NCBI GenBank assembly: GCA_964016885.1
Contig: OZ024743.1
Span: 70,184,001-70,248,000 of the forward strand
Length of the DNA stretch: 64,000 nucleotides
Reading direction: 5' to 3'
Source: Eledone cirrhosa
Taxonomy: Eukaryota
Under the pieces are notes generated by a model that saw nothing but the letters and a program-made list of their open reading frames with translations, was not told the origin of the DNA and ran no database searches. Both the position numbers and the translations under genes were made by a program. How positions within the stretch are numbered: position 1 is the stretch's first letter; the number at the start of each line of letters is the position of its first letter. Shown here one piece after another: positions 6,845 through 62,086 of the stretch.

Positions 6845-7017
6845 TTCCCATGTGCTGCCCATGTGCTGCCCATGTGCTGCCCAGGTGCCGCCCAGGTACT
6901 GCCCAGGTGCTGCCCAGGTGCTGCCCAGGTGCTGCCCAGGTGCTGCCCAGGTGCTGCCCAGGTGCTGCCCAGGTGCTGCCCAGGTGCTGCCCAGGTGCTG
7001 CCCAGGTGCTACCCAAG
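6845..7017. repeat. 11-bp GC-rich minisatellite (GCTGCCCAGGT)n, about 15 copies
   Basis: Read directly; left copies carry the variant GCTGCCCATGT. Confidence 0.95.
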
Positions 7018-7599: not shown

Positions 7600-10500
7600 C
7601 CTCTATATCTGATGTAGGTGAGCTATGAGGCCATCTTACCAGCACTTTCCCTTCCACCCGCACACGCCAGCCACTCACCCCTGATGCCGATCGGTGCCCC
7701 AGTCCCCGGCCCCACGCCCCATCCCCCATCCCCCCAGGCCGACACCTTCAGCACTTGCAGCACCACTAACAGACGGAAGAGGGGCCGGAATTGTTCTGGG
7801 TGCGGCTGCTTCCACCACCTCGCCTGTGGTGGCTTGACACGGCGAGCTTCCAGTGCCCTCGCAGCGTGGAGATGCAGGAACTGCCTCTTCCCCTCGTCTG
7901 CCCAGCCACGGCCGTCTGGCACACCACCAGATGAGACAGCGAGCTTGCCTGACGCCCAAGCGTCGCTGGTCAACATTGCTCGGCTCAGACCGCTCCGGAA
8001 GATCCCACTCAGGATCCCGAAAACGGCCCGGGTGCCGGTAGCCGATGCCCTCGCTTCTTCGATTGAGAGCGCCCTGGACTCCAATTGAGCCAGCGACTGG
8101 GAGCGACTCTTTTATTTCGCCCCACTCACCCTCGGCCTCCCCAGCACTGGCGCTGATCGGGGCGGTCGGTCGACAGCATCCTTCGTCAAGGCCAATGTTT
8201 CGTCCTTTGGGCAAACGCCCAGGGACGCCGCATACCCCACCCTCGGGTACCCCCAATCCTCCACCCCTGAGGCCAGCGCCAAGCGTTTGCGTGACGCGTA
8301 AATGCTAAACTAATCATGGGTGATGTCTCGGCCGCAGTCAGTGTGGTTATCTCAGAGGACATTGTCCTCCAGCCCACCGAGGAGGTCCTGGCTGCCCTGC
8401 GATTCAAACACCCTGATCCACCCGCTGATCTCAGACCCATACCCCCACCCGACTCCAACCTGCTCCTTGTGGCTTCCGACGCAAACATCATGTCTGCCAT
8501 CAAGTCCTTCACAGTTAGCAGCAGTGGCGACCTCAAGGAGTTGCTATACCCCTCTCCGCTGAGGCCGGGTGCCGCCTTCTAAGTGAATTTGTGGCGCTCA
8601 TCAATAGGCTCATCCATGGCACCCTGGACCCTCACTCTCGAGGCCTCTTTTTTTCGGCTAGTCTCACCACTCTCAGGAAGAAAGAGGGTGGCATACACCC
8701 CATCGCTGTGGGCAATATCTTCCGGAAGTTTGCTGCTAAGGTGGTCTGCAGGTCCATAACACCCGAAATGGGTGAGGAGTTCTCTCCGGTGCAACTGTGT
8801 GTCGGGGTGTCCGGTGGCTGTGAGGGGGCCGCACATGTAGTTCTTCAACAGCACATGCAGTTCTTCAACCAGGCAGTTCTTCAACAGCTGCCCACCGGAA
8901 CCAGCATCCAGGGACTCCAGGCACCTCATTGTCAAGCTTGACATGAGGAATGCATTCAACTGTTTGCGCCGGGACCATCTGCTCGATGTCTGCCTCAGCC
9001 GAGCCCCCTCAGCATACCCGCTGGCCTACCTGTCATATGGAGCCCCGAACGTGCCCCTTGCTGCTGATACGGTCATACCTTCGGCTACTGGGAACCCCTC
9101 CTGTTTGCCCTTGGTATAGACCACATCACCCGGAGTATCAAGGCCCCTCTCAACGTTTGGTATCTGGATGATGCTACGTTGGGCGGGCCTGTACAGACTG
9201 TCTGCCATGACCTAAAATCGGTGGTTCCAGCCCTGACGGGAATCGGCCTCCAAGTCTACTCGCCAAAGTCGGAGGTGGTGAATGTCAGCCACGATGCTGA
9301 GAACTTTGCAGCCTCCGTCTCGGACGTGCGGTCCATTCTCCACCAGGTACAGGTGAACCCCAAAGAGGATGTCCTCATCCTCGGGTCACCGTCCACCCGC
9401 CGGCCATCCGCTCCACCATCAGGTCCAGGCTCTCACGAGCTGACTGGGCTTGATCAACGGCCACCCAGCTCTCTTTCTGTTGAGGAACTACTTCGCCATG
9501 CCGAAGCTCCTCTATACCCTACGCAGCGCTCCGTGCTACACCCACACATCTCTCCTCGCTGACCTCGATACTTGTATCAGAGAAGCAGCCGAGGAGATAT
9601 GCAACATCAAGTTTGATGACATTGGATGGCAACAGGCCTCTTTACCTGTCAGGTATGGCGGCCTTGGCCTCCGGTCCCCGATCTCGCTGGCTTTGCCGGC
9701 GTATCTTTCGTCGGTAACCTCGTGCCGTGTCCTCGTCAGCAGGGTTCTTCAAAACAATAGAACCCTCTGTGTTCAGAGAACGAGAGGCCGCCTGAGAGAC
9801 GTGGGACCGGCTGGAACTTAGCCCAGTAGATGTCGCTCCTCCTTCTCCCCCTGTTGACATCAATCCCCCCAAAGCACTTGGGATGCCATCCAGTGCAGCC
9901 TTACCTCAGACAGGCTCATGCGCCAGCTCGACCAACACCGCCATGGCTGCTTTCGTGCGGGCTCCAAACCCCACAGTCGTGTCTGGCTCCATGCCCTGCC
10001 ATCTTTCTCCACTGGCACGTAGCTAGACAACAATAGCCTGCGCATCGGCGTTTCGTTGAGGTTCGGCCCTCGGATATGCGAGCCACACCAATGTCGCTGC
10101 GGATCCACCGTGGACTCTTTCGGCCTCCACCCGCTCTCCTGTCGCCACAGTGGCGGCCGCATTCCACGCCATGCTGCCCTCAACAAGGTAATAAACATGG
10201 CTTGGACGCTGTGGGCTTCCCTTCCCTGCTCGAGGCGGTGGGGCCGGACCGAGGGGACGGCAAAAGGCCAGATGGCATGACCATCTTCCTGTTCCGCGGT
10301 GGCAAACCCCTCGTCTGCGTTGCTACTTGCACCGCCACTTTCTGCAGTCGCAACCTGGTGTAGTCTGCGACTGACCCAGGTTCTGTTGCACGTCGGGCTG
10401 AGAAGGCCAAGCTCCTCAAATACCAGTCGTTCTCCGACATGTTTGCGGTTGTATCCCTGGCAGTGGAGACTTCTGGTGTCCTCGGCTCCAGGGCTACCTC

Positions 10501-10655
10501 CCTTCTCACCACCATAGGCGCTGAGTTGGCCAGCCGCAGGTGTGAACCCCGCGAGCTGGAGTCGCTTTTCCAGCGCGTCTCCCTTGCCGTCCTCCGCGGG
10601 AACGCCTTCTCCGCCGGGGTTGTGTGTGTGTTGCATCGCGTAACATTCCATATTT
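7600..10655 (+). mobile_element. CRE-clade non-LTR retrotransposon, near full length, frameshifted (PHD-like finger, RT, CCHC + RLE)
   Basis: CSGCGCFHHLAC...WRCRNC; LRKKEGGIHPIAVGNIFRKFAAK; QLCVGVSGGCEGAAH; VKLDMRNAFN; WYLDDATLGG; LPVRYGGLGLR; [18 protein letters not shown]; KRPDGMT; LFQRVSLAVLRGNA. Confidence 0.88.
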
Positions 10656-10749
10656 AGGTATCCAGATTAATGGTCTTTAGGGTATTATATTCAACGTAGC
10701 TCAGTTCCCACCAGTGATATTGTTCCGTTTTTCTTTTCTCTAATGGTTT

Positions 10750-13917: not shown

Positions 13918-14017
13918 ATTTGCATTTATATTCTATATCCATACCTGCTTTGTTTTGGCTTTACAAATACAAAGGTTTATACCTCATTACACAATGCTTC
14001 AAGTGAAATATAACTTC

Positions 14018-14099
<82 letters not shown>

Positions 14100-14188
14100 A
14101 GGTAGTTAGCATTGTGTAATGAGGTATAAACGTTTGTATTTGTAAAGCCAAAACAATGCAGGTATGGATATAGAATATAAATGCAAAT
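13918..14188. repeat. Inverted repeat with ~90-100 bp arms centred on (TA)n
   Basis: Arm 13918-14020 is the reverse complement of 14097-14188, apart from two substitutions and a ~13-bp indel plus small differences near the centre. Confidence 0.95.
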
Positions 14189-14196
14189 CTATCTAT

Positions 14197-14295
14197 CTAT
14201 CTATCTATTTATTTATCTATCTACCTTATATCTATCTGTCTATCTTTTGAATGAAACAGTCCTGTAGATGCCATTTCTATATTAAACATTATATA

Positions 14296-14331
<36 letters not shown>

Positions 14332-14432
14332 TATATAATGTTTAATATAGAAATGGCATCTACAGGACTGTTTCATTCAAAAGATAGACAGATAGATATA
14401 AGGTAGATAGATAAATAAATAGATAGATAGAG
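14197..14432. repeat. Apparently perfect palindrome, ~235 bp, centred on (TA)n
   Basis: tatcttttgaatgaaacagtcctgtagatgccatttctatattaaacattatatatattt is mirrored exactly, including irregularities in the flanking (TATC)n. Confidence 0.95.
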
Positions 14433-14544
14433 ATAGACAGAGAGAGAAAAAAAGAGAGAGAAGGAGGGAGAGAGAGAGAGCAGTTGATAAATGGATAGAT
14501 AGATAGGTAGAAAATAGATAGTTATATAGATAGATAGATAAATA

Positions 14545-14592
<48 letters not shown>

Positions 14593-14815
14593 GTTCATTT
14601 ATTCGCTACGAGAGCGCAAAAGATGGGGACAAATGCAAAGGGGGGAGTTTACGAGTAAATAGGTAATAACAATTAAATACAAACAATCGGTATCCTCAAT
14701 AGGGATGGGGCGTTAACAGAGGTTACACACACTCCCGAAAAAATGTGCAACCCTCCTATTCAGGAGCACGAAGAGCGAGTGCTCCCTTCCTCTCTTCTTT
14801 CTCCCCTTCCTCAAT

Positions 14816-17800
14816 CTACAGGCTTATATAGAGAGATGACCCATTCACTCGGGTCATTCTCGCCACTTTCACCCACCTTCCATAAAATTTGCTGGGGTAC
14901 AGCACCTCTCTCTCCATCCTGATTCTTCTTCCAAAATGATATTTGAAAAAAAGAACCAGTTGTTGGCCGGAGAGAAAGGTGTCTGATCTCAGCCCTTTCA
15001 ATCTCGTCCACCTTATAGCCTCTTTCGCCATAGCCATAACACAGATGAAGACCGCCTCTCCTTCGTTTTTGAAGCGGGGTGACGGTTTGATCGTGACAAT
15101 GGACTCCGTGGTCAACCAGATTGGTCCCACCCGTGACAATAGTCGTTCTACATAACCCCACAGGTCGGTAATGCCCGGGCAGTGTGCGAATGCGTTCGCG
15201 ACGGTTTCCTTTTCGCGTATGCATCTCGGACAGATCTTTTTCGAAGGGTCTCTTCCCGGGCGCCCGTGTCTGTAGAGCTTGTCCCGAACGGGTAGAGCTC
15301 TTCCATAGCACTGCCAAGCTAGGGACATGTGGAAGTTGTCCATCGGTCGCGGGCCGATCGTCTTACCGAACAGACTGTCTAGTTCGTCCTCCTCCATGCC
15401 CACAGTTTCTCCGAAAGCGTTGTCGCACTTGCTGCGAACCAACCCTCTATAGAATGTCGCGGTGGAGTCTCCACTGATTGCTGGGTCCGCTTGCCAGAGG
15501 GCCGTAAGTGCCTGGGCACTTTCAATGTGCCAGCCGCCCACTTTTCTCGGTCTTTGCTTGACTCAGGAAAGCAGCTCGGTGAGCGAGACGAGTCGTGAAA
15601 AGGCTCGACTCACAAACAGGGCCCACACCAGTTGACCGGTGAGGAATATCTGGAGGTGCCGTAGCCTTAGTGCGTAGTTACGCATCGTCAGCCACGGCAT
15701 CCTCAGCCCTCCGTCAGAAGGGTGTTGACAGCAGATGGATCTTCTCACCAAAGGAGCCCGCTTCTTCCAGAGGTATTGGAAGAGCGCGCGCTCCATTTTG
15801 GTGAGCGTTTTCGCTGGACAAGGCACGACGGTCAATCGGTAGTAGATGACGGACGCTATATAAGCGTTCGCCACCTCTGCTCGACCTTTCAGGGATAGTT
15901 TGCACTCGGCCCACTTCTGGGCGAGTGCAAACACCTTGGCCGTTACCTCGTTCCAGTTTTTCTCCACCTGGAGGTCTGGTCCGAACCAGACCCCGAGCAG
16001 CTTCACCGGTCCCTCCGTCCAGCGTCCGACGACGCCATCGCAGGGCATCGGTTTGCCTCTCCACGTTCCGAGTTGCAAACCGACCGACTTGTCCCGGTTC
16101 AGCTTTGCTCCTGTAAACCTTTCGTATTCCTCCAGTAAGGTGCCGAACTCCCCGATTTGCGAGGCGCTCGATACCATTACTGTCATGTCATCGGCGTAGG
16201 CCGACCCCGCTTTCCGCAATCCCGGTTCCAAAGGGATGCCCTGCAACAGCTCCAACTTCCGCAGTAGTGGCTCGAGAACCAGTAGATACAGAAAGGAGGA
16301 GAGAGGGCATCCCTGTCGGATGGATGGCGTGATTTGGAACGGCTCCTAGAGATAGCCGTTCACCTCTACCCTTGAGCAGATGTTGCTGCTGTGCATAGTA
16401 GAATTCCAGCCTCTGAAAATGAGTCCGAAGCCTGCTGCTACGAGCACCGCATCCGGGTAACGATGGTCGACCCTATCGTACGCCTTAGATTGATCCAAGT
16501 TGATCAGGGCCCCACCAAATCCGGGTTCACTCCCTACCCTCTCTACGATGTATCGCATGTAGTGGAGGTTGTCGTGTATGGACCTGGACGGGATTGCGCA
16601 TGTCTGCGCTTCTCCCACCAGGTTCCCGACGACAATTGCCAACCTCTTCGTTAACACTTTGGCCAAAATCTTTAACTCTGCATTTAGCAGAGTTATGGGC
16701 CTGAAGTTACCTATGTTGTACCCCTTGTTTTCGTCCTTCCTCAGTAGCGAGACTACGCCCTTGGTCACAGAACTGGTAATTCTCCCGTTCTGTTGCCAGT
16801 TGCAGTAGACCGCCTCAGTGGGAACGGAGAACAAGTCCGGCATAGCTACGTAAATTTCGTATGGTAGACCATCAAGACCCGGAGATTTGTGTTTGCCGCA
16901 TTGGCTCTGCGCGTCCCCAATTTCAGCGGCCGAAATCGGCCCTTCGCAGGACTTCGGCTCCCCGCCCGACAGCCGCGGCAGACCGTCGAGCTATGGACCG
17001 AAATCCATAGTCTCTCCCGGCGCGCCGCCCCTTCCGAAGAGTCGTGCAAAGTGCCGCTGAAAGGCCGCGCACATCCGCTCCGGTTCAAGGATCACACGTC
17101 CATCCTGGTCCTTCAAAGACCGAATCGTGGATTTGTTTCCACTTTTTGCCTATGTCACTCGGGCCCAGCTAACAGCTTTGGTCCCCTCGTTTCCTAGAGC
17201 ACGTGTTTTACTCCTGACAACGCAGCCCTCGTGCTTCGCATCAAAGAACTGGCCTAAGGCCGTTCTTGACGCCAGCACGCTGGCCACGTTTCCACTCCTA
17301 AGCGCCTTTTCTACTCTATCTACTAGTTCTTTTTCCGTTTTAACTCTATCTAGCGCTAGTTCCTTGCTAAATCCTATTGATTCTAATCTAATTGCTCTCT
17401 TGAGAGAGCCCCACCACCTGTTGTTGACTATTGCCCCCGTCAACTGTTGCTTAACGAATGTGCTAATTCGACTACTGTATGCTTTGCTTGTTGGTAACGA
17501 CAAGTTCAGCTTCCAGTAGCCGGGTCCCTGTCTGTTCTATCAAGGTTGATTATGCAGGTCACTAATTTCTGATCTGAATAGTCAACCGTGAACATTTGTG
17601 GACAGCTTAACATGTCCCTATCCTTATTTCTAACTAGAAACCTATCTAGGTACGATCTAGATGTTCCGCTGAGGTTGGTCCACGTCCACAGTGGCACAGT
17701 GGGAAAATCTAGTCGGTATCTATCGGCCAGTACAAATCGGCCGATTAACTGTTTCAGGCTGTTACACCCCCCTCTATCGGGACATGCCCCTACATAGTCC

Positions 17801-18246
17801 CAACGTGCATCCAGGATTCCATTCCAGTCCTCCACTAAAAGCAAGGAGCCGGACGTTCCCAGAAAAGTCTCAAGACGTTTGAAGTCCGGCCGCGGTGTCC
17901 CGGATGGGGCATATGCGGCCACCAGCCTGAAGGCTCCACCTTCACTACTGTCGACGTCTAGGACCAGCAGTCGACCCTCCGGGTCCAGGTGTACCTTCTG
18001 TGTTACGAGGCCCAGGTGTTTCCGCAGCAAAACGGCAACACCACCCCCACCTCCCGGCTGACAGAGAGATGCGTAGATCTCAAAGTCGTCGAAGATGGGG
18101 GCCAGCTGGCGTTCGCTGTGGATCCTGAACTCGCAAATGGCTACTACATCAATACTGTGCGACCTGAGGTCATTTAAGAGTTTGCCCTGTTTCCAGGGCA
18201 TTCCCAGGCCGCGTACATTTACGCACGCAACTCTTATATCAGCCAT
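14816..18246 (-). pseudogene. Tx1-A ORF2 (APE-RT-zinc finger), broken by stops and frameshifts
   Basis: Collinear ORF pieces 17506-18246, 17150-17503, 16346-16843, 15563-16255, 14816-15541. Confidence 0.9.
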
Positions 18247-18289
18247 GTTGGTGGTGAAGAGTTAAAAGTAGAGAAAAGTAAACACCTAC

Positions 18290-20097
18290 CTGTTCGTCTC
18301 CTGGGGACGAGGTTGCACAATTTCCATGGGAGTGTTGGAGGGGTTGTTTGGTAGTGTGGTGGTTTCTGGCGGGGTGGGGACGTCAATGTGTGGTGGGGTG
18401 GGCGTGTCTCAGGTGGAGGGGGACATTTTAAGAGGACACGGTTCATAGGTTTAATACAGGAGTTCCCTATGTCCTCCTTAAAGTTTTCTTTTAGCGATTT
18501 GTAAGTTTCTGTAGGGACGCTGATCATCATTAAGTTTGGTCTATTTGAACATTTTTTTAATTGTTTCCCTTCGGTTTTTGGCGATGGCCTTCATTAGTGT
18601 TTTATTGTTTGAGTTTATGTATGTGTAGTGTTTCTGTTGTGTTGTGTTAGTTTTTGTCTGTGTTTCTTGTGTATGTTTTCGCTTTGTTGTAGGTGTTTGG
18701 AGTGTTGTCGTTTTGTTTTCGGGAGGGGGGAGGGGTTTGTTTGTGATGTCTGTGTTGTTTGTGTTAGTGGTTGTATGTTTATTGCATTTTTGTCTGTGTG
18801 GTGTCTCTTCTTTTTTCATTTTATCGGACGGAAAGGATCCCTCTCATCGTCACTGGGCGACGATGATGGGGTCTCGTCCATTGTGATGTTCGTGTTGTTG
18901 GGGAAGGCTATATTTTGGGGAGCTGTTATGTGTGTCGGTGTTTCTGGAGTTGTTTTGGATGGGGAGGGTTGGGTGGGACTGTGTTCTGTGTTGTTATTGT
19001 TGTTGTGGTGGTGGTGGTTGTGCTACTGTTCTAGGTGTGGGCAATAGTGCCCCTTTTTTCAGGGCACTCAACTGAGGAAAGGTGACCACTGCTTGAACAG
19101 TGGTAGCATGAAGGCCGCCTTCCCTCAACAGAAATATTTATGAAGGCAACTCTATCCAGGGACACTCGCTGCGGTATTTTAGCTATCCGTTCTGGTCTTA
19201 TTTGGACCAGAACTTCAACGCTATTACCACCGAATACGCCCCTGGTGGATTTGCCTACCGAAAGAATAGTGTCTTCTTCTTCTAGGAATCCAGTGAGCAC
19301 CCACCAAATGCTCGCATATGGCCGGATGCTCGAGATTCTTATTTTTTGTGTGCTTTTCCCCAAGTATGTGGGGGGAAAAGGTGTATTGATTGGACACAAT
19401 TGGCGACACAGAATATTTCTGTGCCGTCAATTGGTCTTTCATTAAAATCGACAGACTTCCGTATAGACTTCCTTTCTGAATGAAAGAAATATCTTCCATC
19501 GCATTTCTTAGGACCAGCTCAATTTCGGTTTGCGATAATTGAACCGGTTTCCTAGTAGTGTTCGAGATTGTCCTGAAGGTTATAGTCCTTAGTACTGTAT
19601 CCCTTCGAATTTCTTGGGGGAAGGTAATTGAAAATTCGCCACCTTCCCCGAGAGTTACATACTTTCTTGCTTCCTTTAGCAAGTTTTTTGCATTTGATAT
19701 GTCCAATAATGTGAAATTTTCCGTCTCTCGGACGGCCTGTGCAAAAGAGACTCCGGTTGTGGATCCGTTTACTTTGGTGTTGTTATCATTGTTGTTGTTG
19801 TTCCTGTTGTCTTCATTTTTTTTCTTTGTTGGTGTTGTCGTTATTGCTGTTGTTGGTTGTGGTGTTGTTGTCATTGTTCTTCTTGTTTATGTTTTTGTAA
19901 CTGTTTGGGTTTGCACCCATTTTCATAAATTCTTTAGGTAAATTCGTTTCCATAACATCTTTTGAGAGAGTGAGGAGGGAAGGCTTAGATCGTTGTGCTC
20001 CTACCTTCTTCCTATCTCTTTCCTTGGTGGGCGTGGCATTTTCGTTCGTATGCGACGTAGTAATGGCGTCCATTACTGTAGTCAAACGACTTTGCAA
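18290..20097 (-). pseudogene. Tx1-A ORF1 (gag-like zinc knuckle, T/N/P-rich flanks), frameshifted
   Basis: ORF pieces 19813-20097, 19224-19874 (VSFAQAV), 19031-19399 (VEGRRPSCYHC), 18541-18819. Confidence 0.8.
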
Positions 20098-20273
20098 AAT
20101 AACAAATTATAAATTTCGCCCCTAAAAGGGGCGAACATGTGTTAACCAACCGTCCGCAAACCAAGACGAGGGGTTAAACTAAACACATATAATTAATTAA
20201 CAAACTTACAGTTGTTCGTAACAAATATCCAACAAACGTCAGGAGCGAAGCAAAAACACGTCTTTCGTCTCCG

Positions 20274-20314
<41 letters not shown>

Positions 20315-21335: not shown

Positions 21336-21769
21336 ATGCGTGTGTGTGTATATATATATATAGAGAGAGAGAGAGAGAAAGAGAGAGAGAGGGGGTAGAT
21401 ATATACAGAGGGGGAGAGGGAGGGGATAGAAACGAGGGAATCATTTATGATAGTTTAAATCCTCTATTTAATAAACGTAGTAGAATAAACTCCATGGAAT
21501 AGCTCGTTATGTGTTGATATCTCCGAGGACTTTGTTTTAAACATAATTGACATGATGGAGCTAAACTAACGTACGAATATTTTCCCATGTGTAATTTTCA
21601 ATACCAGAGTAAAGATTATTGTTTTATTCTCGGCAGTTCTTTTATATAGATAATTGTACTGAACGAATGAATACAGGAAACTGAAGGGAAAGACGCTGCA
21701 TGTTGAGAAATATTAACCATGATTTCTGAGTTCGAGACATGAGTGTTGAACGCAAATTAGCAGAACATA

Positions 21770-22355
21770 ATAATAATTGTTTTTACTTTTGGCACAAGGC
21801 CAGCAATTCACCAGTGCATTACTGGTACTTTATTTTATCGACCCTGTAAGGATGAAAGGCAAAGTCAACCTCGGCGGGATTTGAACTCAGATCATAAAGG
21901 GGCGTAACTCTATGCTACAAAGCATGGCGTACGACCCTCTACCGATACTGCCAATCCACCAGAACATAATAATAATTGTTTCTACTTTTGGCACAAGTCC
22001 ACCAATTACTCAGTGCATTACTGGTACTTTATTTTATCGGCCCCGTAAGGATGAAAGGCAAAGTTAACCTCGGCGGGATTTGAACTCAGAATGGCAAGGG
22101 CCGTAACTATATGCGTCAAAGCATCGAGTCCGACCCTCTACCGATAATTTCTACTATAGGCACAATGCCAGCAAGTTTTGGGATGGGAAAATCGATTAAA
22201 TCGACCCCTCTGCATTTCTGGTGCTTTATTTTATCGACTCCGTAAGGATGAAAGGCAAAGTTAACCTCGGCGGGATTTGAACTCAGGGCGTGATGGGACA
22301 TAATTCTATGCAACAAAGCATATTGTCCGACGCTCTACCGATATTGCCAATCCAA
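21770..22355 (-). mobile_element. Three tandem SINE copies
   Basis: Repeated ggcacaaggccagcaatt...ctggtactttattttatcgacccc...gatttgaactcag...accgatactgccaatcc, with (AAT)n at the copy ends. Confidence 0.92.
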
Positions 22356-26852: not shown

Positions 26853-26898
<46 letters not shown>

Positions 26899-27140
26899 TT
26901 TTCTTTATTAACCACAAGGGTTTACATAAAGTAGACATTAAGGACAGTACAGGACAATACAGGACGGTACAAATGGGCATTTCTGCGTGTAAAAAAACAG
27001 AGGATGTAATAAAATAACAAAGAAAAATTCCCCAATAGGAGGGAGACTTCCGAGGGACATTTGTGGAGAAAGCCCATTAAAAGACCACAGTGACCCTGAC
27101 CACCATGGCAAGTGCCCTCTCCCAGTTTTGCACCCTTAAT

Positions 27141-30100
27141 TTACAAACACATACTCAGAGAAGGCCCATTCATTCGGGCCATACTTGCTTCTCTCACCCA
27201 TCTTTCAACAAAATGCTGGGAAGAGAGCACTTCCCTCTCTACCCTGATTTTCCTTTTCAAATGAAATTTGAAAAAGTTAATCAGGGCATCACCGAAGAGG
27301 TAAGTGCTCGTCTTCAGCCCTTTCAAACGTGTCCACCATACTATCTCTTTCGCCATGGCCACCAGACAGATAAAAACTGCCTGCTCTTCACGGCTAAATG
27401 AAGAGGGCGGGGCAATCCTCACGATGGACTCAGCTGATAGCTGGATCCGTCCTACACGTGACAGCAGGTGTTCGACATAAACCCACAAGTCAGCAATGCT
27501 CGGACACTGGACGAGTGCGTGCAGGACGGTTTCGTCGCCCTGTGCGCATCTCGGACATGCCCGGCTGACGGCACCTCCATGCCTGTAGAGTTTATCCCGA
27601 ACTGGCAAAGCTCCCCGGTAGCGCTGCCAGGCCAGGGATTTCTGGAAGTTGTCCATAGGCCCCGGCCCGAAAGTCCTTCCGAAGAGATTGGCTAGTTGAT
27701 TTTCGTCGACGCCTAGAGTTTCTCCAAGTACGTCGTCGCTCTTCCCCTCCACTAATCCTCTATAGAACGCCGAGGTGGAGTTTCCACCGATCAAATTTAC
27801 CGATTGGTCGAGGGCTGTGAGCGCCTGAAGATATTCCAGTCTCCAACCGCTCCCTCTCAGTCTTCGCTTGACCCAAGACTGCAACTCCGTCAAGGAGACG
27901 AGCTGGGGAAAGACGCCTCTAGCAAACGGCGACCACGCCTGATCACCGTCGAGGAAGAGGTGGAGATGTCGTAGCCTGAGCCCGTGTATGCGCATCATCA
28001 GCCACGGCATGCCCAGCACTCCACGTAGTGGGTTTTGACAGCAGCTGGACCGCCTGACCATCGGAACGCTTCCCTTCCACAAAAAGCGAAAGAGCAAACG
28101 CTCCAGCGCAGTCATGCGGGGCTTAGGACAAAGTACGACGGTCAGTCGGTAATAGATGACGGACGTGATTTACGCGTTAGCCACCTCCGCTCGACCTTTG
28201 AGGGAGAGCTTCCTCTCCGCCCATTTCTGGGTGAGAGAACCCACCCTGCTCTTCACCTCGTCCCAGTTCTTGTCCGCCTGGAGGTCCGGACCGAACCAGA
28301 CCCCTAGCAATTTAACCGGTCCGTCCGTCCAGCGCCCGACGACGCTGTTGGACGGCATGGACCTGCCTCTCCAGGTGCCGAGCTGCAGGCCCACTGACTT
28401 TTCCTGGTTGATCATTGCTCCTGTCACCGCTTCGTATTCTCTTAGTGTAGTGCCGATCGCCTCGATGTGTTTGGCATTAGACACCACTACGGTGACATCG
28501 TCCGCATATGCTGACACGGATCTTCCGCATCCTAGTTCGCGCGGGATTCCCCTCAACGTCTCCAGTTTGTGCAGTAATGGCTCGAGAGTCAATACGTACA
28601 AGAGGGACGAGAGGGGACATCTCTGGCGGACCGAGCGCATGATGTTGAACAGTTCCGAAAGGTGACCGTTCACTCTCACCACAGAGCTGATGTCGCTGTG
28701 CATGGCAGCGTTTCAGCCTCTGAGTTATGGGCCTGAAATTATCTGTTATACCCCTTTTTGGGATCCTTTCTCAGTAGCGCCACCGCTCCTCGGCTTACAG
28801 AGCTGGAAATTCTCCCGTTCTGTTGCCAGTTGCAGTAGACGTCCGCCAAGAGGCCTCCGAACAAGTCTGGCATCTGTACGTAAAGTTCATAGGGCAGACC
28901 ATCCAAACCAGGCGATTTACCCCTTGTGCAGCTAGTCTTTGCCTCCCGTACTTCAGCGGCTGTTATCGGCTTTTCGCAACACTCCGCCTCAGTGGCCAAG
29001 AGCCGCAGCAGTCCGTCGAGGTAGACACTAAAGTCCATCCCTCGATCTGGCCCGCCGCTGCTCCCGAACACCTGAGCGAAGTGTCGCTGAAAAGCTTCAC
29101 ATATTTGCCCGGGATCGAGTAGCCTGCGTGCGTCGTGGTCCACCAAAGACCGGATCTTGACTTTGTTGCCACGACGCTCCCCCGCCACTCGGGCCCATTG
29201 AACAGCTTTCGTCCCCTCGTGTATGAGAGCACGCAACCTAGCTCTGACAACGCAGTCTTCGTACTTTGCATTGAAGAATTGCTCAAGGGCTAATTTCGCC
29301 GCAAGTACGTCGGTCGCGATGCCTTTGCTAAGCGCCTCGTCTAATTTTCTAACTAGTTCTCCCTCTGCTCTATTTTTCTCTACTGCTAAAGCCTTACTAA
29401 ACCTAATAGACTCCATTCTAATCGCCCTTTTCAGAGCAAAATACCACTTGTTGTTGACGATGGCCCCCGTCAACGCCCGCTTAACTAGTTCGCTAATCCG
29501 GTCTCTGTAGGCCTTGCGCGCTGGTAAGGACACGTTTAGCTTCCAGTAGCCGAGTCCTTGTCTATGAAGCCTATCTAAGTCAACCACACAGATCATGAAT
29601 TTGTGGTCCGTGTAGCTGACTATCTTGAATTGTGGACAGCCTATGCTAGACCTATCTATTTCCCTACAAAATACTGTATCTAGGTATGATCTGGATGACC
29701 CGATACGGTTTGTCCAAATACACATTGGCACATTCGGAAAATCCTATCGGCATCTGTCAGACAGTTCAAAACGCCGGAGCAGGTTGGTGAGCTCTTGCAC
29801 CCTCCTCCCCTATCCGCTAATCCCACACAGTCCCAGCCTGCATCTAAGATCCCGTTCCAGTCGCCCACTAGCACTAAAAAGCGGGACGTTCCAAGAAAGG
29901 TCTCCAGACGCCGGAAGAAATCAGGCCGCCCTGCTCCTGTCGGGGCATAGACGGCCACTAGCCTGAAAGCTTGCCCGTCTCCGCTGGTCACGTCCAGCAC
30001 CACCAACTTACCTTCTGGGTCCAGGAAGATGTCCCGTATAGCGAGATCCAAACCTCACCGAAAAAGCACAGCAACTCCTCCCCCCGATCCAGGACGGCTG

Positions 30101-30282
30101 GGAGATGCGTACACATCGTAGCCGCCGAAGAACGGTGCGAAGGCTCGTGCTTCGGAGATTCTGGTCTCGCTGATGGCCACTACATCTATGTCTAGTGACC
30201 TGAGGTCGTTGAGCAGGTGGCCCTGCTTCCATGACGACCCCAAGCCACACGCATTTATGCTGCCTATTCTGAGTGAGGACAT
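27141..30282 (-). pseudogene. Tx1-B ORF2 (APE-RT), disrupted
   Basis: ORF pieces 30055-30282, 29680-30051, 28739-29731, 28170-28703, 27141-28115; the RT segment LNTEFKIL..KAFDR is missing at ~28722. Confidence 0.9.
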
Positions 30283-30321
30283 GTTGAAAAGGAGTGGAAA
30301 AGATGGGAAAGACCACTTACC

Positions 30322-32273
30322 TTACTTCTCATAGAGGAAGGATGGTTTCTGCATCCTTTTCACTGCTTGTGGCCTCCTCCGGAAGGATGTCCTTATAAAT
30401 CCTCCTGGAGGGTGCTTGTCAGAAGTCTCCGATGTCTATTGGGAATTTTTGTTTTAGTTCCGTGTACGTTTTCTGTGTGATGCGAGTTGTTTGTATGTGT
30501 GGAGGTGGTGTGAACTTTTGGGGTGTTGTGTAGTCTTTTTCTGTGTTGCTGGTGTTGTGTTGGATGTAGTGTAATAATTGATTGTTGTTCAAATTTAATG
30601 CTGAGTAGTGTGTATCGTTTTGGTTGTTTTGTTTTGTTTGCGTTTGTTGTGGGTTTGTTTCTGTTTCGCTTTTTGGTGACTTTGTGGTGTTGGTGATGGT
30701 GGTGTTGGGGTTAATGATGGTGATGGTGTTGGTGTTTGTGGTGATGGGGTTGGTGATGCTGGTGTGGATAGTGGCGTAGCTGTCTTAACTTTTTTTGTTT
30801 GATAGTTTATTTGTTTCCCCCTGTATTTTGTTTGTGGAGGGGGAAGAAAGTGTATAAATTTCTTTTTAGGCTTCTTTTTCTTTTTTTCTTTTTTCCTGAT
30901 ACAGTTTCCCACTCCTCGTCGTCACAATCTGTCTCCAGTTGCGATAGGTCGGGGAGTGGAAAATCCTCCACAGCCGTTGGTTTTGGTTGTGGCGTGGTGG
31001 ATGGTATAGGCGCTGGTGCTAGTTCTCGCGCGGTGGGTGGTGGTAGTGTTGGTTTTGCTACTGTTGCTGGGTTTGTTGCTGCTACAGTTGTTGCTGCCAT
31101 TTCTGCTGCTGGTGGTTTTGATGGTTGAGTCACTGGGGTGAGTAAGAGAGGTGGTCTCAACTCTTTAGCCTGCGGGCAGAAAGCCTTTTGGTGGGTTCCT
31201 TCACCACAAACGACACACCTAGGCCTTCTTCCTTCGACGATTACGGCGAGGTGGCTACCGACAGTGAGGTCTATTACCTCTGGGATTTCCTCAATGCTCT
31301 TTTGGTCCGCTTGGATCAGGAGCTCCATCCCAGATCCGAACCAGTTCTCCTGTTTTTGTTTTGATAGTTCAAATATTTTGGTGTTGGCCTCGATGCCGGC
31401 GAGGACGGCAGCCATTAGCTAGGAAATTTCGATGGCCGGTGGAACGTGGGTCACCCTGATCTTCACGAGTCTCTGGCCACAATAGCTTGGGACGAGTGTG
31501 AATTCGTCGCTTCTTAATGGGGCCATGGAGTGCTCTCTGGCCTCCTGTGGTGTTCCAAAGAACACGTCCACGGTTCCATATTTCTGCCCACGTCTGATGT
31601 GGGTTTTTATCGCCCACACATGTCCCAAAGCTTTTTGGGACTCGGATGCCCGTTCCACTCGGTGCGATTTTGTGTTAATCGTCCGATAGACATGGTGCAT
31701 AGGCGCCAATGCCCCATTTTATTAGGTGTATGTGTGTGTGTGGGGGGGGGGGGGGTTGACCCTGTACCCATTTTTCTTTACCATTCTCTTGGATTCATTT
31801 AATTCCTCCTGAGTTACCTCGATTGTTTCGCATTTCTTGGCTGCTTTGGCAAACGACACATTTGCGGTGGTGTTGATGCTTTTGTTGTTATTTTCATTGT
31901 TGTTGTTGCTGTTGTTGTTATTGTAATTTATGTTATTGTTATTTTTAGTTTCAGTTGTGGTGGTGGTGGCGTCAGTGGTGTTCGGTGTGGAAGAGTCGAT
32001 TCTTGGTGAATCCATTTCGATGTCACGAGATAACAATTTACTTTTTCCTTTTGTTTCTGTTGTCGCTGTGGTGGTGGTGGGGGTGGCGGCTTTCACACCT
32101 GCAGTTTTTGGTAATGGCGGGAAATGAATGTCTGCATGAGACAAATTTAAATTATTGCTACGGCTTATATTTTTAGTGCTGGCAAACGTAGTAATATTTA
32201 CAATTGTGGTGTTGGTGTGAGGTGTTAGTTTGTGAGGAAGGCTGTCAGCTTGGTGTAGCTGTGAGTCGTCCAT
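30322..32273 (-). pseudogene. Tx1-B ORF1 (CCHC knuckle), frameshifted
   Basis: ORF pieces 31722-32273 (VSFAKAA), 31419-31709, 30807-31415; homologous to the family A ORF1. Confidence 0.8.
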
Positions 32274-32505
32274 GATTTTTTCAAAGAAATTTTTTGTTTG
32301 ATAATTATAAAAGTTTAAATTTTGGGCTCAAGGCCCCAATCTTTTTGAGTGTCCTTTTCCGAAAGCAATATATGTGACCTTATAAACACTTAACAACAAA
32401 AATTTTCCATAAATGGCAATTTGAAACAAATGAAAATAACAAATCTTTGCGGAGCTCACGATAATACGATTTCCTACGTAGGTCACCAATAATAATAATA
32501 ATAAT

Positions 32506-35299: not shown

Positions 35300-35511
35300 A
35301 ATAATAATAATGAGAAGAAGAAGAAGAAGAAGAAGAAGAAGAAGAAGAAGAAGAAGAAGAAGAAGAAGAAGAAGAAGAAGAAGAAGAAGAAGAAGAAGAA
35401 ATGCTTTGACAATTCTATAAATATATAATATGATACAACGTAATATAATATAATATAATATAATATAATATAATATAATATAATATAATATGGTATTATT
35501 ACTATATAATA

Positions 35512-47658: not shown

Positions 47659-47659
<1 letters not shown>

Positions 47660-49708
47660 TTTTCATTTATTAGCCACCAGGGCCGACATGTAGGGGACAA
47701 TACAAAGACAGGGACAGTGGGGGTTTACAATAAGGTGGAGTAAAAGTGCACAAAAGTGCACACTAATTTAACAATGAAAATATAAAAATATAAAATAAAC
47801 TATGCATAAATATAACAAAATAAATTCCCCGATAGGGGGTGTACGACCCTGAGGTGCTTCAGGTACCCCACCAGTCCTGAACCACCCTGCGCTTCTAGGG
47901 CACCCAGGGAGAGCACCCTTCTCCTCAAGTTAGCTAGCCTATAGGCGCATGGTCAGAGTAGGCCCATTCACACGAGCCATTCTCGCCACATTCACCCACC
48001 TTTTAGCAAATGTACTGGGGGGCAGCACTTCTCTCTCCACCCTCACCTTCCTTTCCAGGTGAAACTTGAAGAAGTTGATGATGGATTGGCCGAAGAGAAA
48101 AGTGTCTGTCTTTAGTCCTTTCAACCTGGTCCACCATATAATCTCTTTCGCAACTGCCACCAGACAGAGGAAAATTTCCTGCTCTTCCTGACCTAAGGAA
48201 GGCGGTGGATCGATCTTAACTATGGACTCGGCCGATAGCCGGATTCGTTCCACACGCGACAGTAGCTGTTCGACATAACCCAACAAGTCAGCAATGCACG
48301 GACATTGGAACAGTGCATGCAGAACGGTTTCGTCGTTCTGTGCGCATCTTGGGCAGGTCCGTCTGACAGCACTTCCGTGTCTGTAGAGTTTATCCCGAAC
48401 CGGCAGTGCCCCCCGGTAGCACTGCCAAGCGAGGGATTTCTGGAAATTATCCATCGTCCCCGGCTCAAAAGTCCTCCGGTACAGACTGGTCAGTTCGATT
48501 TCGTCGAGGCCCAAAGCTTCTCCGAGTGCGTCATCGCACTTGCCCACCACTAATCCTCTAAAGAACTCGAGAGTGGAAGTTCCACTGATCGCATTGCCCG
48601 CTTGGTAGAGGGCAGTGAGTGCCTGGCAACATTCCAGGTGCCAGTCACCCAGTCTCGGTCTCTTCTTGACCCAGGACTGCAGCTTAGTCAAAGAAATGAG
48701 CTGCGGAAAGGCCCGTCTGATAGACGGCGACCACACCTGTTCACCGTTGAGGCAGAATATCTGGAGATGTCGCAGCCTCAACGCATGTCTGCGCATCGTT
48801 AGCCACGGCATGCCCAGCCCTCCGCGTAGAGGGTGCTGGCAGCAGATGGACCGCCTCACCAACGGAACTTGTCCCCTCCACAAGAATTTGAAGAGGAGCC
48901 GTTCCAGCTTGACGAGGCGCGGATGGGGGCAAGGCACGACGGTCAGGCGGTAGTAGATGACGGACGCGATGTACGAATTCGCCACCTCCGCGCGACCTTT
49001 CAGTGATAGCTTCCTCCCAGCCCATTTTTGGGTGAGACTGTCTACTCTGCTAGTTACCTCGTCACAATTCTTTTCCACCTGGAGGTCTGGTCCGAACCAA
49101 ACCCCGAGCAACTCTACCGGTCCGTCCGTCCAGCGCCCCACGACGCTGTTGGACGGCATGGGCTTGCCTTTCCAGGTTCCGAGCTGCAAGCCCACCGACT
49201 TTTCCGGGTTAAGTTTGGCTGCTGTCAACCTTTCATTTTCCTTCAATAAGGTGCAGACCACGTCGATTTCTGAGGTGTTCGATACCATCACGGTGATATC
49301 GTCAGCATAAGCCGACACCGCCCTTCCACGTCCCGGTTCGAGCGGGATGCCCTGCAACAGCTCCAGCTTCCGCAGTAAAGGCTCGAGAGTCAATACGTAC
49401 AGAAGGGAAGAGAGAGGGCACCCTTGACGGACCGATCGGGAGAGCCGAAATGGTTCCGAGAGGTGGCCATTAACGTTGACCACCGAGCATGTGTCGCTGT
49501 GCATTGCAACGATCCAGCTTCTAAAGACAGGGCCGAAGCCAGCTGCTTTGAGAACAAACTCCAGATACCGATAGTCGACGCTATCGAATGCATTCGATTG
49601 ATCTAAATTGATCAGTGCCCCACCGAAGCCAGGTTTACACCCTACCCTCTCTATGATGTATCGCATGAGGTGGAGATTGTCGTGTATGGATCTGGCCTGG
49701 ATTGCGCA
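47659..49708 (-). mobile_element. Tx1-type LINE, subfamily D, 5'-truncated
   Basis: Uninterrupted 575-aa RT/C-terminal ORF; distinct 3' UTR; AATAAA followed by (ATT)n. Confidence 0.93.
47939..49666 (-). CDS. Open 3' part of Tx1-D ORF2 (RT motifs 3-7 + zinc finger); truncated, not a complete gene
   Basis: LDQSNAFDSVD, SVRQGCPLSSLLY, AYADDI, CPRC..DETVLHALFQC with no stops. Confidence 0.85.
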   Translation of the reverse strand: MRYIIERVGCKPGFGGALINLDQSNAFDSVDYRYLEFVLKAAGFGPVFRSWIVAMHSDTCSVVNVNGHLSEPFRLSRSVRQGCPLSSLLYVLTLEPLLRKLELLQGIPLEPGRGRAVSAYADDITVMVSNTSEIDVVCTLLKENERLTAAKLNPEKSVGLQLGTWKGKPMPSNSVVGRWTDGPVELLGVWFGPDLQVEKNCDEVTSRVDSLTQKWAGRKLSLKGRAEVANSYIASVIYYRLTVVPCPHPRLVKLERLLFKFLWRGQVPLVRRSICCQHPLRGGLGMPWLTMRRHALRLRHLQIFCLNGEQVWSPSIRRAFPQLISLTKLQSWVKKRPRLGDWHLECCQALTALYQAGNAISGTSTLEFFRGLVVGKCDDALGEALGLDEIELTSLYRRTFEPGTMDNFQKSLAWQCYRGALPVRDKLYRHGSAVRRTCPRCAQNDETVLHALFQCPCIADLLGYVEQLLSRVERIRLSAESIVKIDPPPSLGQEEQEIFLCLVAVAKEIIWWTRLKGLKTDTFLFGQSIINFFKFHLERKVRVEREVLPPSTFAKRWVNVARMARVNGPTLTMRL

Positions 49709-52700
49709 AGGGTTTACATAAAGTAGACATTAAGGACAGTGCAGGACAATACAGGACGGTACAAATGGGCATTTCTGCGTGTAAAAAACAAAAACAGAGG
49801 ATGTAACAAAAAAATAACAATGAAAAATTCCCCAATAGGGGGGAGACTTCGGAGGGATATTTGTGGAGAAAGCCCAGTAAAAGGCTACAGTGACCATGAA
49901 CACCAAGGCAAGTGCCCTCTCCCAGTTTTCCACCTTTAATTTACAGATACGTACACAAAGTAGGCCCATTCACTCGGGTCATTTTTGCTTCTCTCACCCA
50001 TCTTTCAACAAAATGCTGGGAAGAGAGCACTTCCCTCTCTACCCTGATTTTCCTTTTCAAATGAAATTTGAAAAAGTTAATCAGGGCATCACCGAAGAGG
50101 TAAGTGCTCGTCTTCAGCCCTTTCAAACGTGTCCACCATACTATCTCTTTCGCCATGGCCACCAGACAGATAAAAACTGCCTGCCCTTCACGGCTAAATG
50201 AAGAGGGCGGGGCAATCCTCACGATGGACTCAGATGATAGCCGGATCCGTCCTACACGCGACAGCAGGTGTTCGGCATAAACCCACAAGTCAGCAATTTT
50301 CGGACACTGGACGAGTGCGTGCAGGACGGTTTCGTCGCCCTGTGCGCATCTCGGACATGCCCGGCTGACGGCAGCTCCATGCCTGTAGAGTTTATCCCGA
50401 ACTGGCAAGGCTCCTCGGTAGCACTGCCAGGCCAGAGATTTCTGGAAGTTGTCCATAGGTCCCGGCCCGAAATTTCTTCCGAAGAGATTTGTTAGTTGAT
50501 TTTCGTCGAAGCCTAGAGTTTCCCCAAGCATGTCGTCGCTCTTCCATACCACTAATCCTCTATAGAACGCCGAGGTGGAGTTTCCACCGATCACATTGCC
50601 CGATTGGTCGAGGGCTGTGAGCGCCTGAAGACATTCCAGTCTCCAGGCGCTCCCTCTCGGTCTTCGCTTGACCCAGGACTGCAGCTCCGTCAAGGAAACG
50701 AGCTGGGGAAATACCTGTCGAGCAAACGGCGACCACACCTGATCACCGTCGAGGAAGAGGTGGAGATGTCGTAGCCTGAGAGCGTGTCTACGCATCATCA
50801 GCCACGGCATGCCCAGCCCTCCACGTAGTGGGTGTTGACAGCAGGTGGACCGCCTGACCATCGGAGCGCGTCCCTTCCACAAAAAGCGAAAGAGCAAACG
50901 CTCCAGCGCAGTCATGCGGGGCTTAGGACAAGGTACGACGGTCAGGCGGTAATAGATGACGGACGCGATGTACGCGTTAGCCACCTCCGCTCGACCTTTC
51001 AGGGATAGCTTCCTCTCCGCCCATTTCTGGGTGAGAGAAGATAACCTGCTCGTCACCTCGTCCGAGTTTTTGTCCGTCTGGAGGTCCGGACCGAAACAGA
51101 CCCCTAGCAATTTAACCGGTCCGTCCGCCCAGCGTCCGACGACGCTGTTGGACGGCATGGACCTGCCTCTCCAGGTGCCGAGCTGCAGGCCCACTGACTT
51201 TTCCTGGTTGATCATTGCTCCTGTCACCGCTTCGTATTCTCTTAGTGTAGTGCCGATCGCCTCGATGTGTTTGGCGTTCGACACCACTATGGTGACATCG
51301 TCCGCATATGCTGACACGGATCTTCCGCATCCTAGTTCGCGCGGGACGCCCCTCAACGTCTCCAGTTTGTGCAGTAATGGCTCGAGAGTCAATACGTACA
51401 AGAGGGACGAGAGGGACATCCTTGGCGGACCGAGCGCATGATGTTGAACGGTTCCGAATGGTGACCGTTCACTCTCACCACAGAGCAGATGTCGCTGTGC
51501 ATGGCAGCGATCCAGCCTCTGAAGACGGGCCCAAAACCAGCCGCCCTCAGGACTTCCGCTAGGTAACGATGGTCGAACCTATCGAAAGCTTTCGACTGAT
51601 CTAAATTGATCAAGGACCCACCTGTGCCAGGTTCCCTAGCTACCCTCTCTACGATGTATCGCATGAGGTGGAAGTTGTCGTGGATGGATCTGTCGGGAAT
51701 GGCGCATGTCTGCGCCTCTCCCAACATACCACCAACGACAAGCGCCAACCTCTTTGCTAGCACCTTGGCCAAAATCTTGAACTCTGTGTTTAGCAGAGTT
51801 ATGGGCCTGAAATTGTCTATGTTATCCCTCTTGTTATGATCCTTTCTCAGCAGTGCCACCGCTTCTCGACTCACAGAGCTGGGAATTCTCCCGTTCTGTT
51901 GCCAGTTGCAGTAGACGGCCGCCAAGGGGCCTCTGAACAAGTCTGGCATCTGTACGTAAAGTTCATAGAGCAGACCATCCAAACCAGGCGATTTACCCAT
52001 TGTGCAGCCAGTCATTGCCTCCCGTACTTCAGCGGCTGTTACCGGCTTTTCGCAACACTCCGCCTCAGTGGCCGAGAGCCGCGGCAGTCCGTCGAGGTAG
52101 ACACTAAAGTCCATCCCTCGACCCGACCCACCGCTGCCCCCGAACAGCTGAGCGAAGTGTCGCTGAAAAGCTTCACACATTTGCCCGGGATCGAGTAGCA
52201 TGCACCCGTCGTGGTCCACGAAAGACCGGATCGTGGCTTTGTTGCCACAACGCGCCTCCGCCACTCGGGCCCATTGAACGGCTTTCGTCCCCTCGTGTCT
52301 GAGAGCACGCACCCTAGCTCTGACAACGCAGCCTTCGTGCTTTGCATTGAAGAATTGGTCAAGGGCCAATTTCGTCGCAAGCACGTCGGTCGCGATGCCT
52401 TTGCTAAGCGCCTCGGCTAATTTTCTAACTAGTTCTCCCTCTGCTCTATTTTTCTCTATTGCTAAAGCCTTACTAAACCTAATGGATTCTATTCTAATCG
52501 CTCTTTTCAGAGCAAACCATCACTTGTTGTTGACGATGGCTCCCGTCAACGCCCGCTTAACTAGTTCGCTAATCCGGTCTGTAGGCCTTGCGCGCTGGTA
52601 AGGACGCGTTTAGCTTCCAGTAGCCGGGTCCTCGTCTATGAAGCCTATCTAAATCAACCACACAGATCACGAATTTGTGGTCCGTGTAGCTGCTATCTTG

Positions 52701-53196
52701 AATTGTGGACAGCCTATGCTAGACCTATCTATTTCCCTACAAAATACTCTATCTAGATATGATCTGGATGACCCTATGCGATTTATCCAAGTCCCCATTG
52801 GCACATTCGGGAAATCCAATCGGTACCTGTCAGACAGTTCAAAACGCCTGAGCAAGTTGGTGAGGCTCTTGCACCCTCCACCCCTATCCGCTAATCCCAC
52901 ACAGTGCCAGCGTGCATCTAAGATCCCGTTCCAGTCGCCCACTAACACTAAAGAGCGGGACGTTCCAAGAAAGGTCCCCAGACGCCGGAAGAAATCAGGC
53001 CGCCCTGCTCCTGTCGGGGCATAGACGGCCACTAGCCTGAAAGCCTGCCCGTCTCCGCTGGTCATGTCCAGCACCACCAACTTACCCTCTGGGTCCAGGA
53101 AGATGGCCCGTATGGCGAGATCAAAAGCTATCCGAAAAAGCACAGCAACTCCTCCCCCGATCCGTGGGAGATGCGTACACATCGTAGCCGCCGAAG
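49707..53196 (-). mobile_element. Tx1 family B-type copy (E): most of ORF2, lacking the last ~17 nt of the 3' end
   Basis: Near-identical to 26915-30130; ORFs 52667-53182, 51389-52384, 49941-51419. Confidence 0.93.
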
Positions 53197-53514
53197 ACGG
53201 TTTCGTCGCCCTGCGTGCATCTCAGACATGCCCGGCTGACGGCAGCTCCATGCCTGTAGAGTTTATTCCGAACTGGCAAACTTCTCGGTAACACTGCCAG
53301 GCTAGGGATTTCTTGAAGTTGTCCATAGGCCCCGGCCCGAAAGTTCTTCCGAAGAGATTGGCTAGTTGATTTTCGTCGACGCCTAGAGTTTTCCCAAGTA
53401 CGTCGTCGCTCTTCCCCTCCACTAATCCTCTATAGAACGCCGATGTGGAGTTTCCACCGATCACATTGCCCGATTGGTCGAGGGCTGTGAGCGCCTGAAG
53501 ATATTCCAGTCTCC
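53197..53514 (-). mobile_element. Internal Tx1-B fragment (F) fused to the 5' end of E
   Basis: Matches 27527-27844 (FYRGLVEGKSDDVLG...AWQCYR); ends at (AAT)n. Confidence 0.9.
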
Positions 53515-53544
53515 TATAATAATAATAATAATAATAATATATTT

Positions 53545-61987: not shown

Positions 61988-62086
61988 ACATATACATATA
62001 CATACATACATATATATACATACATATATACATACATATACATACATATATACATATATATACATACATATATACAGATACATATA

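Follow-up and report, generated by a model that had tools for sequence, protein, structure and literature searches.

A 64,000-nt window of the Eledone cirrhosa genome (assembly GCA_964016885.1, contig OZ024743.1, positions 70,184,001 to 70,248,000, the whole stretch analysed here) carries a dead copy of an L1/Tx1-type long interspersed nuclear element (LINE), inserted in the tetranucleotide repeat (TATC)n at both junctions. The copy probably reached this position through its apurinic/apyrimidinic endonuclease (APE), by nicking of the GATA strand at 5'-ATA/G-3' and priming at the nick. The family that it represents is real and specific for its target, although TATC simply adds another unit to the list of microsatellites known to receive such elements. 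The main addition is a tight natural target-switch pair within the family, subfamilies A2 and C, together with genome-wide counts of the junctions.

The window copy belongs to subfamily A1 of the TATC lineage and lies on the minus strand at 14593..20274 (5,682 bp). The original prediction, made from the sequence of the window, described a full-length Tx1 LINE at 14593..20312. Full length stands, in a copy that has two open reading frames (ORFs) and is inactivated, and the start is right; the true end is 20274, and the longer span takes in 5' repeat. The 5' flank (20275..20314) is a perfect (AGAT)10, which reads (TATC)n on the element strand. The 3' flank (14382..14592) is an AGAT array of 53.5 units with 77% matches overall; it is perfect beside the element, degenerate farther out, and merges into (AG)n. 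The element ends in AATAAA-TGAAC(C) and passes immediately into (TATC)n. The last C, at 14592, is assignable to either the element or the repeat. Direct contact with (GATA)n at both ends and the lack of poly(A), both claimed earlier, are thus confirmed.

Only one copy had been seen, which holds within the window and not genome-wide. A 5' query consisting of the first 195 bases without repeat returned 448 candidates, of which 40 were scored and 30 fetched. A TATC 8-mer occurs within 30 nt upstream of 29 of the 30 fetched heads (window copy included), and none of the 30 satisfies the corresponding rule for ATT. In the remaining head the first bases are missing, and TATC adjoins it without a gap. 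Genome-wide, 68 exact matches to a 24-base head motif were counted, 54 of them directly after TATCTATC. Random 5' flanks, which were to speak against targeting, were looked for, and the flanks are not random. The background frequency of the 8-mer is 27 in 8,954 30-nt windows (0.3%) and, near other copies, 9 in 1,170 (0.8%), so TATC at the window and family junctions is not there by chance. The 3' ends agree. Ten pattern matches were found for A1; nine are true elements, and all nine continue into TATC. The A2 3' end has 195 exact matches genome-wide. Among the 51 examined, the flank begins with TATC in 45 and with TAT in 47, off-target ends included. Past the pure run, 29 of the 51 go on into another low-complexity repeat (background 8%), a continuation that would fit native compound microsatellites. 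Only a few ends enter (TC)n after one TATC unit; the main target is (TATC)n and not (TC)n, (TTC)n, (TTCC)n or (TTTC)n. Three A2 loci (L069, L183/L211 and L230) run through a short stretch of TATC into one and the same downstream sequence, and their target therefore lies inside a second repeat element or in a segment that was duplicated.

Copies truncated at the 5' end are informative about the insertion site itself. Their junctions were tallied by eye from the flanks, under the rule of a TATC 8-mer within 30 nt; eight loci whose 5' parts are divergent, unresolved or rearranged did not enter the tally (L212, L220, L221, L222, L225, L226, L229 and L242). The 8-mer is present at the internal junction in 10 of 22 truncated copies of the TATC lineage. 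Same-repeat flanks in >20% of copies have been used as the criterion for a microsatellite-specific Tx1 family (PMC4494074), a proportion exceeded here by heads, 3' ends and truncated junctions. Target duplications containing non-repeat letters were recovered in eight A or C copies out of 127 junction pairs and are 9-32 bp long; one of the eight (L238) is a tandem-duplicated copy. They begin at TAT, and a C precedes in seven of the eight. Such letters indicate insertion into pre-existing TATC sites. In the A1 copy L034 the target is just one TATC unit, the duplication measures 9 bp and no tail was added; together with the other duplications, this copy points to more than a templated tail. The duplication starts make 5'-ATA/G-3' on the GATA strand the likely nick. 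An account with no targeting at all is largely refuted by these data and very unlikely, whether it takes (TATC)n for a templated tail and the 5' repeat for element sequence or a neighbour's tail, or supposes passive retention of copies where DNA is rich in repeats. It would accommodate the 7 of 22 truncated copies that have no 5' repeat, and the many heads that come after the tail of another Tx1 copy. It does not accommodate TATC at 10 of 22 internal junctions against a background below 1%, the non-repeat letters in the duplications, the fixed strand and register, or the presence in the same regions of B copies with ATT and not TATC. With heads, 3' ends, truncated junctions and duplications in agreement, the earlier proposal of a LINE targeted to (TATC)n is upheld.

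The B copies are relatives of the element within the same window. B1 (26898..32490, minus strand) is full length with an internal deletion and has (ATT)n at both ends. B2 (47659..49715, minus strand) is a 3' fragment that ends in (ATT)n and is fused upstream to a B1-type copy. Across the genome, the 3' ends of B1 and B2 lie in (ATT)n at 56 of 60 fetched loci, and B1 heads follow ATT in 10 of 10 cases. Truncated B copies, also judged by eye, have ATT at 16 of 24 5' junctions and TATC at none. The ATT flanks were therefore real in the original prediction; the relatives are not close, as it had held, since their APE domains are 62-67% identical to those of A. Target class tracks APE clade: TATC for A1 and A2, ATT for B1 and B2.

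A closer comparison is provided by subfamily C, which surfaced in the 3' query and whose end pattern (three flank bases included) has 377 matches. Of 30 fetched C-type ends, 28 fall in one flank family, a C/T-rich minisatellite of ~70 bp within a dispersed repeat of ~1 kb, and the insertion site is always C^TATATC. The host repeat (L081-L100, L271-L300) has (AT)n ahead of its start and a GC-rich stem at its end; examination of it showed no TTAA ends and no terminal inverted repeats. The APE domains of A2 and C are 94% identical, those of A1 and A2 92%. A tree was built from 35 copies, those among 51 with all three ORF2 segments. In this tree the C copies form a single clade (100/100) whose sister is young A2 (100/99), within the TATC lineage. 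Forcing A1 and A2 together, a group named after the first tree, is rejected by the approximately unbiased test (p 0.0003). C is also the younger group: its copies differ from their own majority by 1.5%, whereas young A2 copies differ from theirs by 3.1% and A1 copies by 4.7%. A2 and C are thus a better pair for a comparison of target switching than A and B. On the question of how site-specific LINEs select a site through the APE, loops grafted into the L1 endonuclease (L1-EN) failed to confer specificity, so that the comparison of APE loops suggested in the original prediction calls for caution. Natural APE domains are available in this genome at 94% (A2/C), 92% (A1/A2) and ~65% (A/B) identity, with three targets, and through them the determinants could be located or the weight shifted toward RNA pairing.

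The composition of C bears on how the switch came about. Over its first 1.2 kb, C shares 79-86% identity with the L093 type but only ~66-72% with A2 (long alignments). The APE domains of A2 and C differ at 33 nucleotides; 28 of these lie in the first 400 alignment columns, and 13 equal the A1 state. C is a mosaic, and the A1-like differences point to recombination. The shift to C^TATATC likely came with the recombined 5' module, which comprises the 5' untranslated region (UTR), ORF1 and the N-terminal half of the APE. It is hardly credible that ORF1 or the 5' module, rather than the APE, steers the choice between TATC and the minisatellite: the resemblance of the first 1.2 kb to the L093 type would suit such a role, yet loci with that head type (L093, L094 and L241) sit in TATC. 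ORF2s that resemble one another are found behind several different 5' UTR/ORF1 modules (L093, L094, L216, L241 and L212-type loci), an arrangement that amounts to frequent module swapping.

Candidate residues were sought within the APE. Of the 28 amino-acid changes derived in C, 13 fall in this domain, which makes up 22% of the codons (binomial p 0.004). These figures do not establish an adaptive excess in the APE; the contrast of non-synonymous with synonymous changes gives p 0.11, and the 13 A1-like differences among 33 indicate recombination. All 13 C copies carry the change G64R, as does 1 of 19 A copies scored. In the profile alignment it adjoins the equivalent of Lys70 in L1, a residue belonging to the second DNA-binding patch of L1-EN, which contacts positions -4 to -6 (PMC8565326). 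The TATC and C targets differ only at -4 and -6 from the nick. G64R as a cause of the altered target is a lead and not a result. The case for Arg64 as the single cause is rejected or at least weakened, since it is also found in TATC-flanked copies (L227, L234 and L241). The same holds for Ala10, which is present in TATC-tailed copies (L212, L220, L225, L226 and L229), and for the hairpin-side pair L186R and T190S: 8 of the 13 C copies have it, and the early ones lack it. No single APE residue explains the switch. One can sketch a recent, stepwise course, in which a (TATC)n element gained a 5' module with the N-terminal half of the APE and so moved to C^TATATC, G64R supplied a loop arginine, and the hairpin changes came later. 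This course is speculative and, on balance, rather improbable; if true, a handful of residues outside the hairpin would reprogram an APE endonuclease.

The principal steps proposed for insertion into TATC are as follows. (i) The APE endonuclease would make the target choice and nick the GATA strand at 5'-ATA/G-3'. (ii) Transcription of the element would continue for a few bases beyond AATAAA and enter the repeat. (iii) These bases would pair with the nicked primer, where target-primed reverse transcription starts; no poly(A) would be copied as a consequence of this pairing. (iv) The top strand would be broken 9-32 bp downstream. Nick specificity of the A-type APE for TATC is predicted from the junctions. 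Target choice by Tx1 elements is described as led by the endonuclease (PMC4494074), and the endonuclease of Tx1L is reported to nick its own target almost exclusively in vitro (PMC1950540). Choice by the endonuclease and pairing by the RNA may act together.

A different division of labour can be imagined, in which the endonuclease is loose and cuts at many ATA/R sites, and integration is completed solely where a site pairs with repeat units at the RNA end, at the 3' side and perhaps also at the 5' side. RNA-guided selection of this kind is unlikely, if the most serious competitor. AATAAA stands only ~6 nt from the element end, so that transcripts would include flanking repeat, and no poly(A) is copied. 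The predominance of TAT at A2 ends (47 of 51) extends to off-target insertions, and a TAT core is common to A, C and possibly B. The heads of full-length C copies end in a constant target-like 15-mer, and the hairpin changes L186R and T190S, confined to 8 of 13 C copies, postdate the switch. Few base contacts are made by L1-EN, and loop grafts fail to carry specificity over (PMC1950540, PMC8565326). Against guidance by the RNA, the terminal element letters of older C copies are those of older A2 copies, and still the minisatellite holds 28 of 30 C-type ends. Duplications at C copies show that bases beyond ~6 nt are derived from the target, so pairing is short; and the A1 copy at a single TATC unit (L034) gained no tail.

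Selection of the nick by the endonuclease is the preferred reading, and several observations weigh against it. The seven truncated copies without a repeat at the 5' junction belong here: their missing 5' parts were sought in 10 kb of upstream sequence, where six of the seven gave nothing and the seventh (L258) gave only a 77-bp low-complexity match. Five further truncated copies of the 22 are partial, with one unit, a degenerate repeat or (TA)n, and 2 of the 22 satisfy the ATT rule instead. Off-target copies occur in (TA)n, (TC)n and AT-rich DNA. The 15-mer at full-length C heads is the same whatever the 3' flank; full-length heads may therefore carry target sequence in the RNA, which weakens head counts. 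The paucity of base contacts in L1-EN and the failed loop grafts count on the same side. The search for duplications was anchored at the element end, and the A1 nick register is uncertain by one base. Large internal deletions are common in this genome: 15 of 22 headed copies are shorter than 5,600 bp (L211-L250, L061-L080), which suggests a high deletion rate. Later deletions may explain the truncated junctions that lack a repeat.

The element is a member of the L1/Tx1 group of retrotransposons that lack long terminal repeats (non-LTR). The features of this group are present: two ORFs, 5'-truncated copies and target duplications of variable length. In the window copy, all on the minus strand, a 5' UTR (20074..20274) whose head motif is common to subfamily A2 precedes ORF1 (18286..20073), which is broken by stops and frameshifts. 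A splice-donor motif resembling GGTAG/GGTAAG lies at the end of ORF1 (18280-18290, minus strand). ORF2 (14816..18246) encodes an N-terminal APE (17527..18243), a reverse transcriptase core (15986..16723) with a stop inside it, and a C-terminal zinc-binding motif (15158..15328); a Pfam scan places the domains in this order and finds no RNase H. The pieces match Exo_endo_phos, RVT_1 and, weakly, zf-RVT (E 6e-4, under the Pfam cut-off in the window copy). Compared with a long natural sister ORF, the window ORF2 has four in-frame stops and one frameshift directly after the APE. The catalytic His of the APE is replaced by Gln, and the GD motif by ED. The copy is dead despite its full length, because both ORFs are broken and the catalytic His is lost. 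The 3' UTR (14593..14815) has its AATAAA at 14598-14603 and no poly(A).

Relationship to L1 is also seen at the level of structure. A profile of 25 sequences retrieved human L1 ORF2p as the top solved structure (E 1.6e-145). Two AlphaFold models of the window APE were made. The version from six sequences was poor (predicted local distance difference test score, pLDDT, 57); the second, which was used, reached pLDDT 84 and superposes on L1-EN with a template modelling (TM) score of 0.80. Its hairpin is of L1 length. A match of the window APE to a repeat protein in a single-sequence search of the PDB was spurious, and the profile search was used instead. The ORF1 of the Tx1 clade carries a CCHC zinc knuckle. 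A weak knuckle was found in one of four ORF1s scanned, that of the relative L068 (zf-CCHC, E 0.02 in Pfam), with CX2CX4HX4C visible. Protein searches gave no named Tx1 protein among their matches, so the putative label 'Tx1 clade' rests on architecture and behaviour. The nearest named protein is a hypothetical protein of Argonauta hians, 61% identical across 47% of the query. A scan with NCBIfam gave nothing specific, an ESM atlas search returned unnamed APE-reverse transcriptase clusters, and a pattern scan of JGI metagenomes gave 0 matches. The 3' kilobase of A2 is covered by contigs of four sequencing runs labelled as other organisms, without flank information.

Several known systems resemble this lineage. 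Published Tx1 families insert into (TC)n, (TTC)n, (TTCC)n and (TTTC)n, and DNA transposons also serve as targets (PMC4494074, PMC3812793). The original prediction correctly named Kibi on (TC)n and Koshi on (TTC)n; its list was short of the crocodilian families on (TTCC)n and (TTTC)n (PMC4494074). Kibi and Koshi, of the teleost Tx1 clade, are likewise APE-type non-LTR elements in pyrimidine-strand microsatellites (PMC4494074, PMC3812793), whereas the element of E. cirrhosa uses TATC and its relatives ATT. The crocodilian group of Tx1-1_Crp and Tx1-2_AMi also has tetranucleotide targets (PMC4494074); unit and host differ, and the lineage described here spans TATC, ATT and a minisatellite. C is comparable to Tx1L of Xenopus in Tx1D and crocodilian Tx1-Mar in Mariner-N4_AMi (PMC4494074) in lying at a fixed register within a dispersed repeat. 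Unlike these, C is nested in a microsatellite-targeting lineage with 94% APE identity, and its host is the ~1-kb repeat with the ~70-bp minisatellite. The APE hairpin, of L1 length here, is longer in Tx1L (PMC1950540). Human L1 ORF2p and L1-EN (PDB 8uw3, 1vyb) are the best solved match, with the same domain order; the present element differs in having no poly(A) tail, a TATC target in place of T-tract/A, and a CCHC-like knuckle in ORF1. For Octopus vulgaris, 13 recently active L1-Tx1 families are listed in a paper whose main text does not use the word 'target' (PMC13282606); judged by this listing, they may include the TATC lineage. No LINE specific for (TATC)n or (GATA)n was found in the literature searched; Repbase, Dfam and the supplements of PMC4494074 lay outside the search and may hold one. 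The portion of PMC10294476 covered adds no further microsatellite-targeting case.

In this genome, LINE stacks are drawn to GATA and ATT tracts. Different TATC-lineage subfamilies stand head to tail with short TATC runs between them (L062, L063, L067, L075, L077, L080, L217 and L231). Within the window, a B-type copy at 32500-35300 lies head to tail on the B1 copy (26898-35300 in all), and 47659-53520 holds stacked and fused B-type copies in which a B1 3' UTR joins a B2 ORF2 directly near 49715. A 199-bp unit is repeated three times in tandem at 21761-22354 and recurs beside ATT tracts; it is probably a short interspersed nuclear element. Just past the 3' repeat of the A1 copy, a perfect palindrome with 118-bp arms and no spacer is centred on (AT)n (14196-14431), and a second inverted pair is found nearby (13918-14188). 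Locus L242 has a similar fold-back, and so does the DNA upstream of L084. The palindrome could be a cruciform-derived duplication or an assembly artefact. Elsewhere in the window, GC-rich ORF fragments with a YLDD-like motif (7618-10666), accompanied by an 11-bp tandem repeat (6847-7015), are probably a further degraded retroelement. A reverse transcriptase ORF at 60752-62000 on the minus strand belongs to another LINE type, CR1/L2-like by eye.

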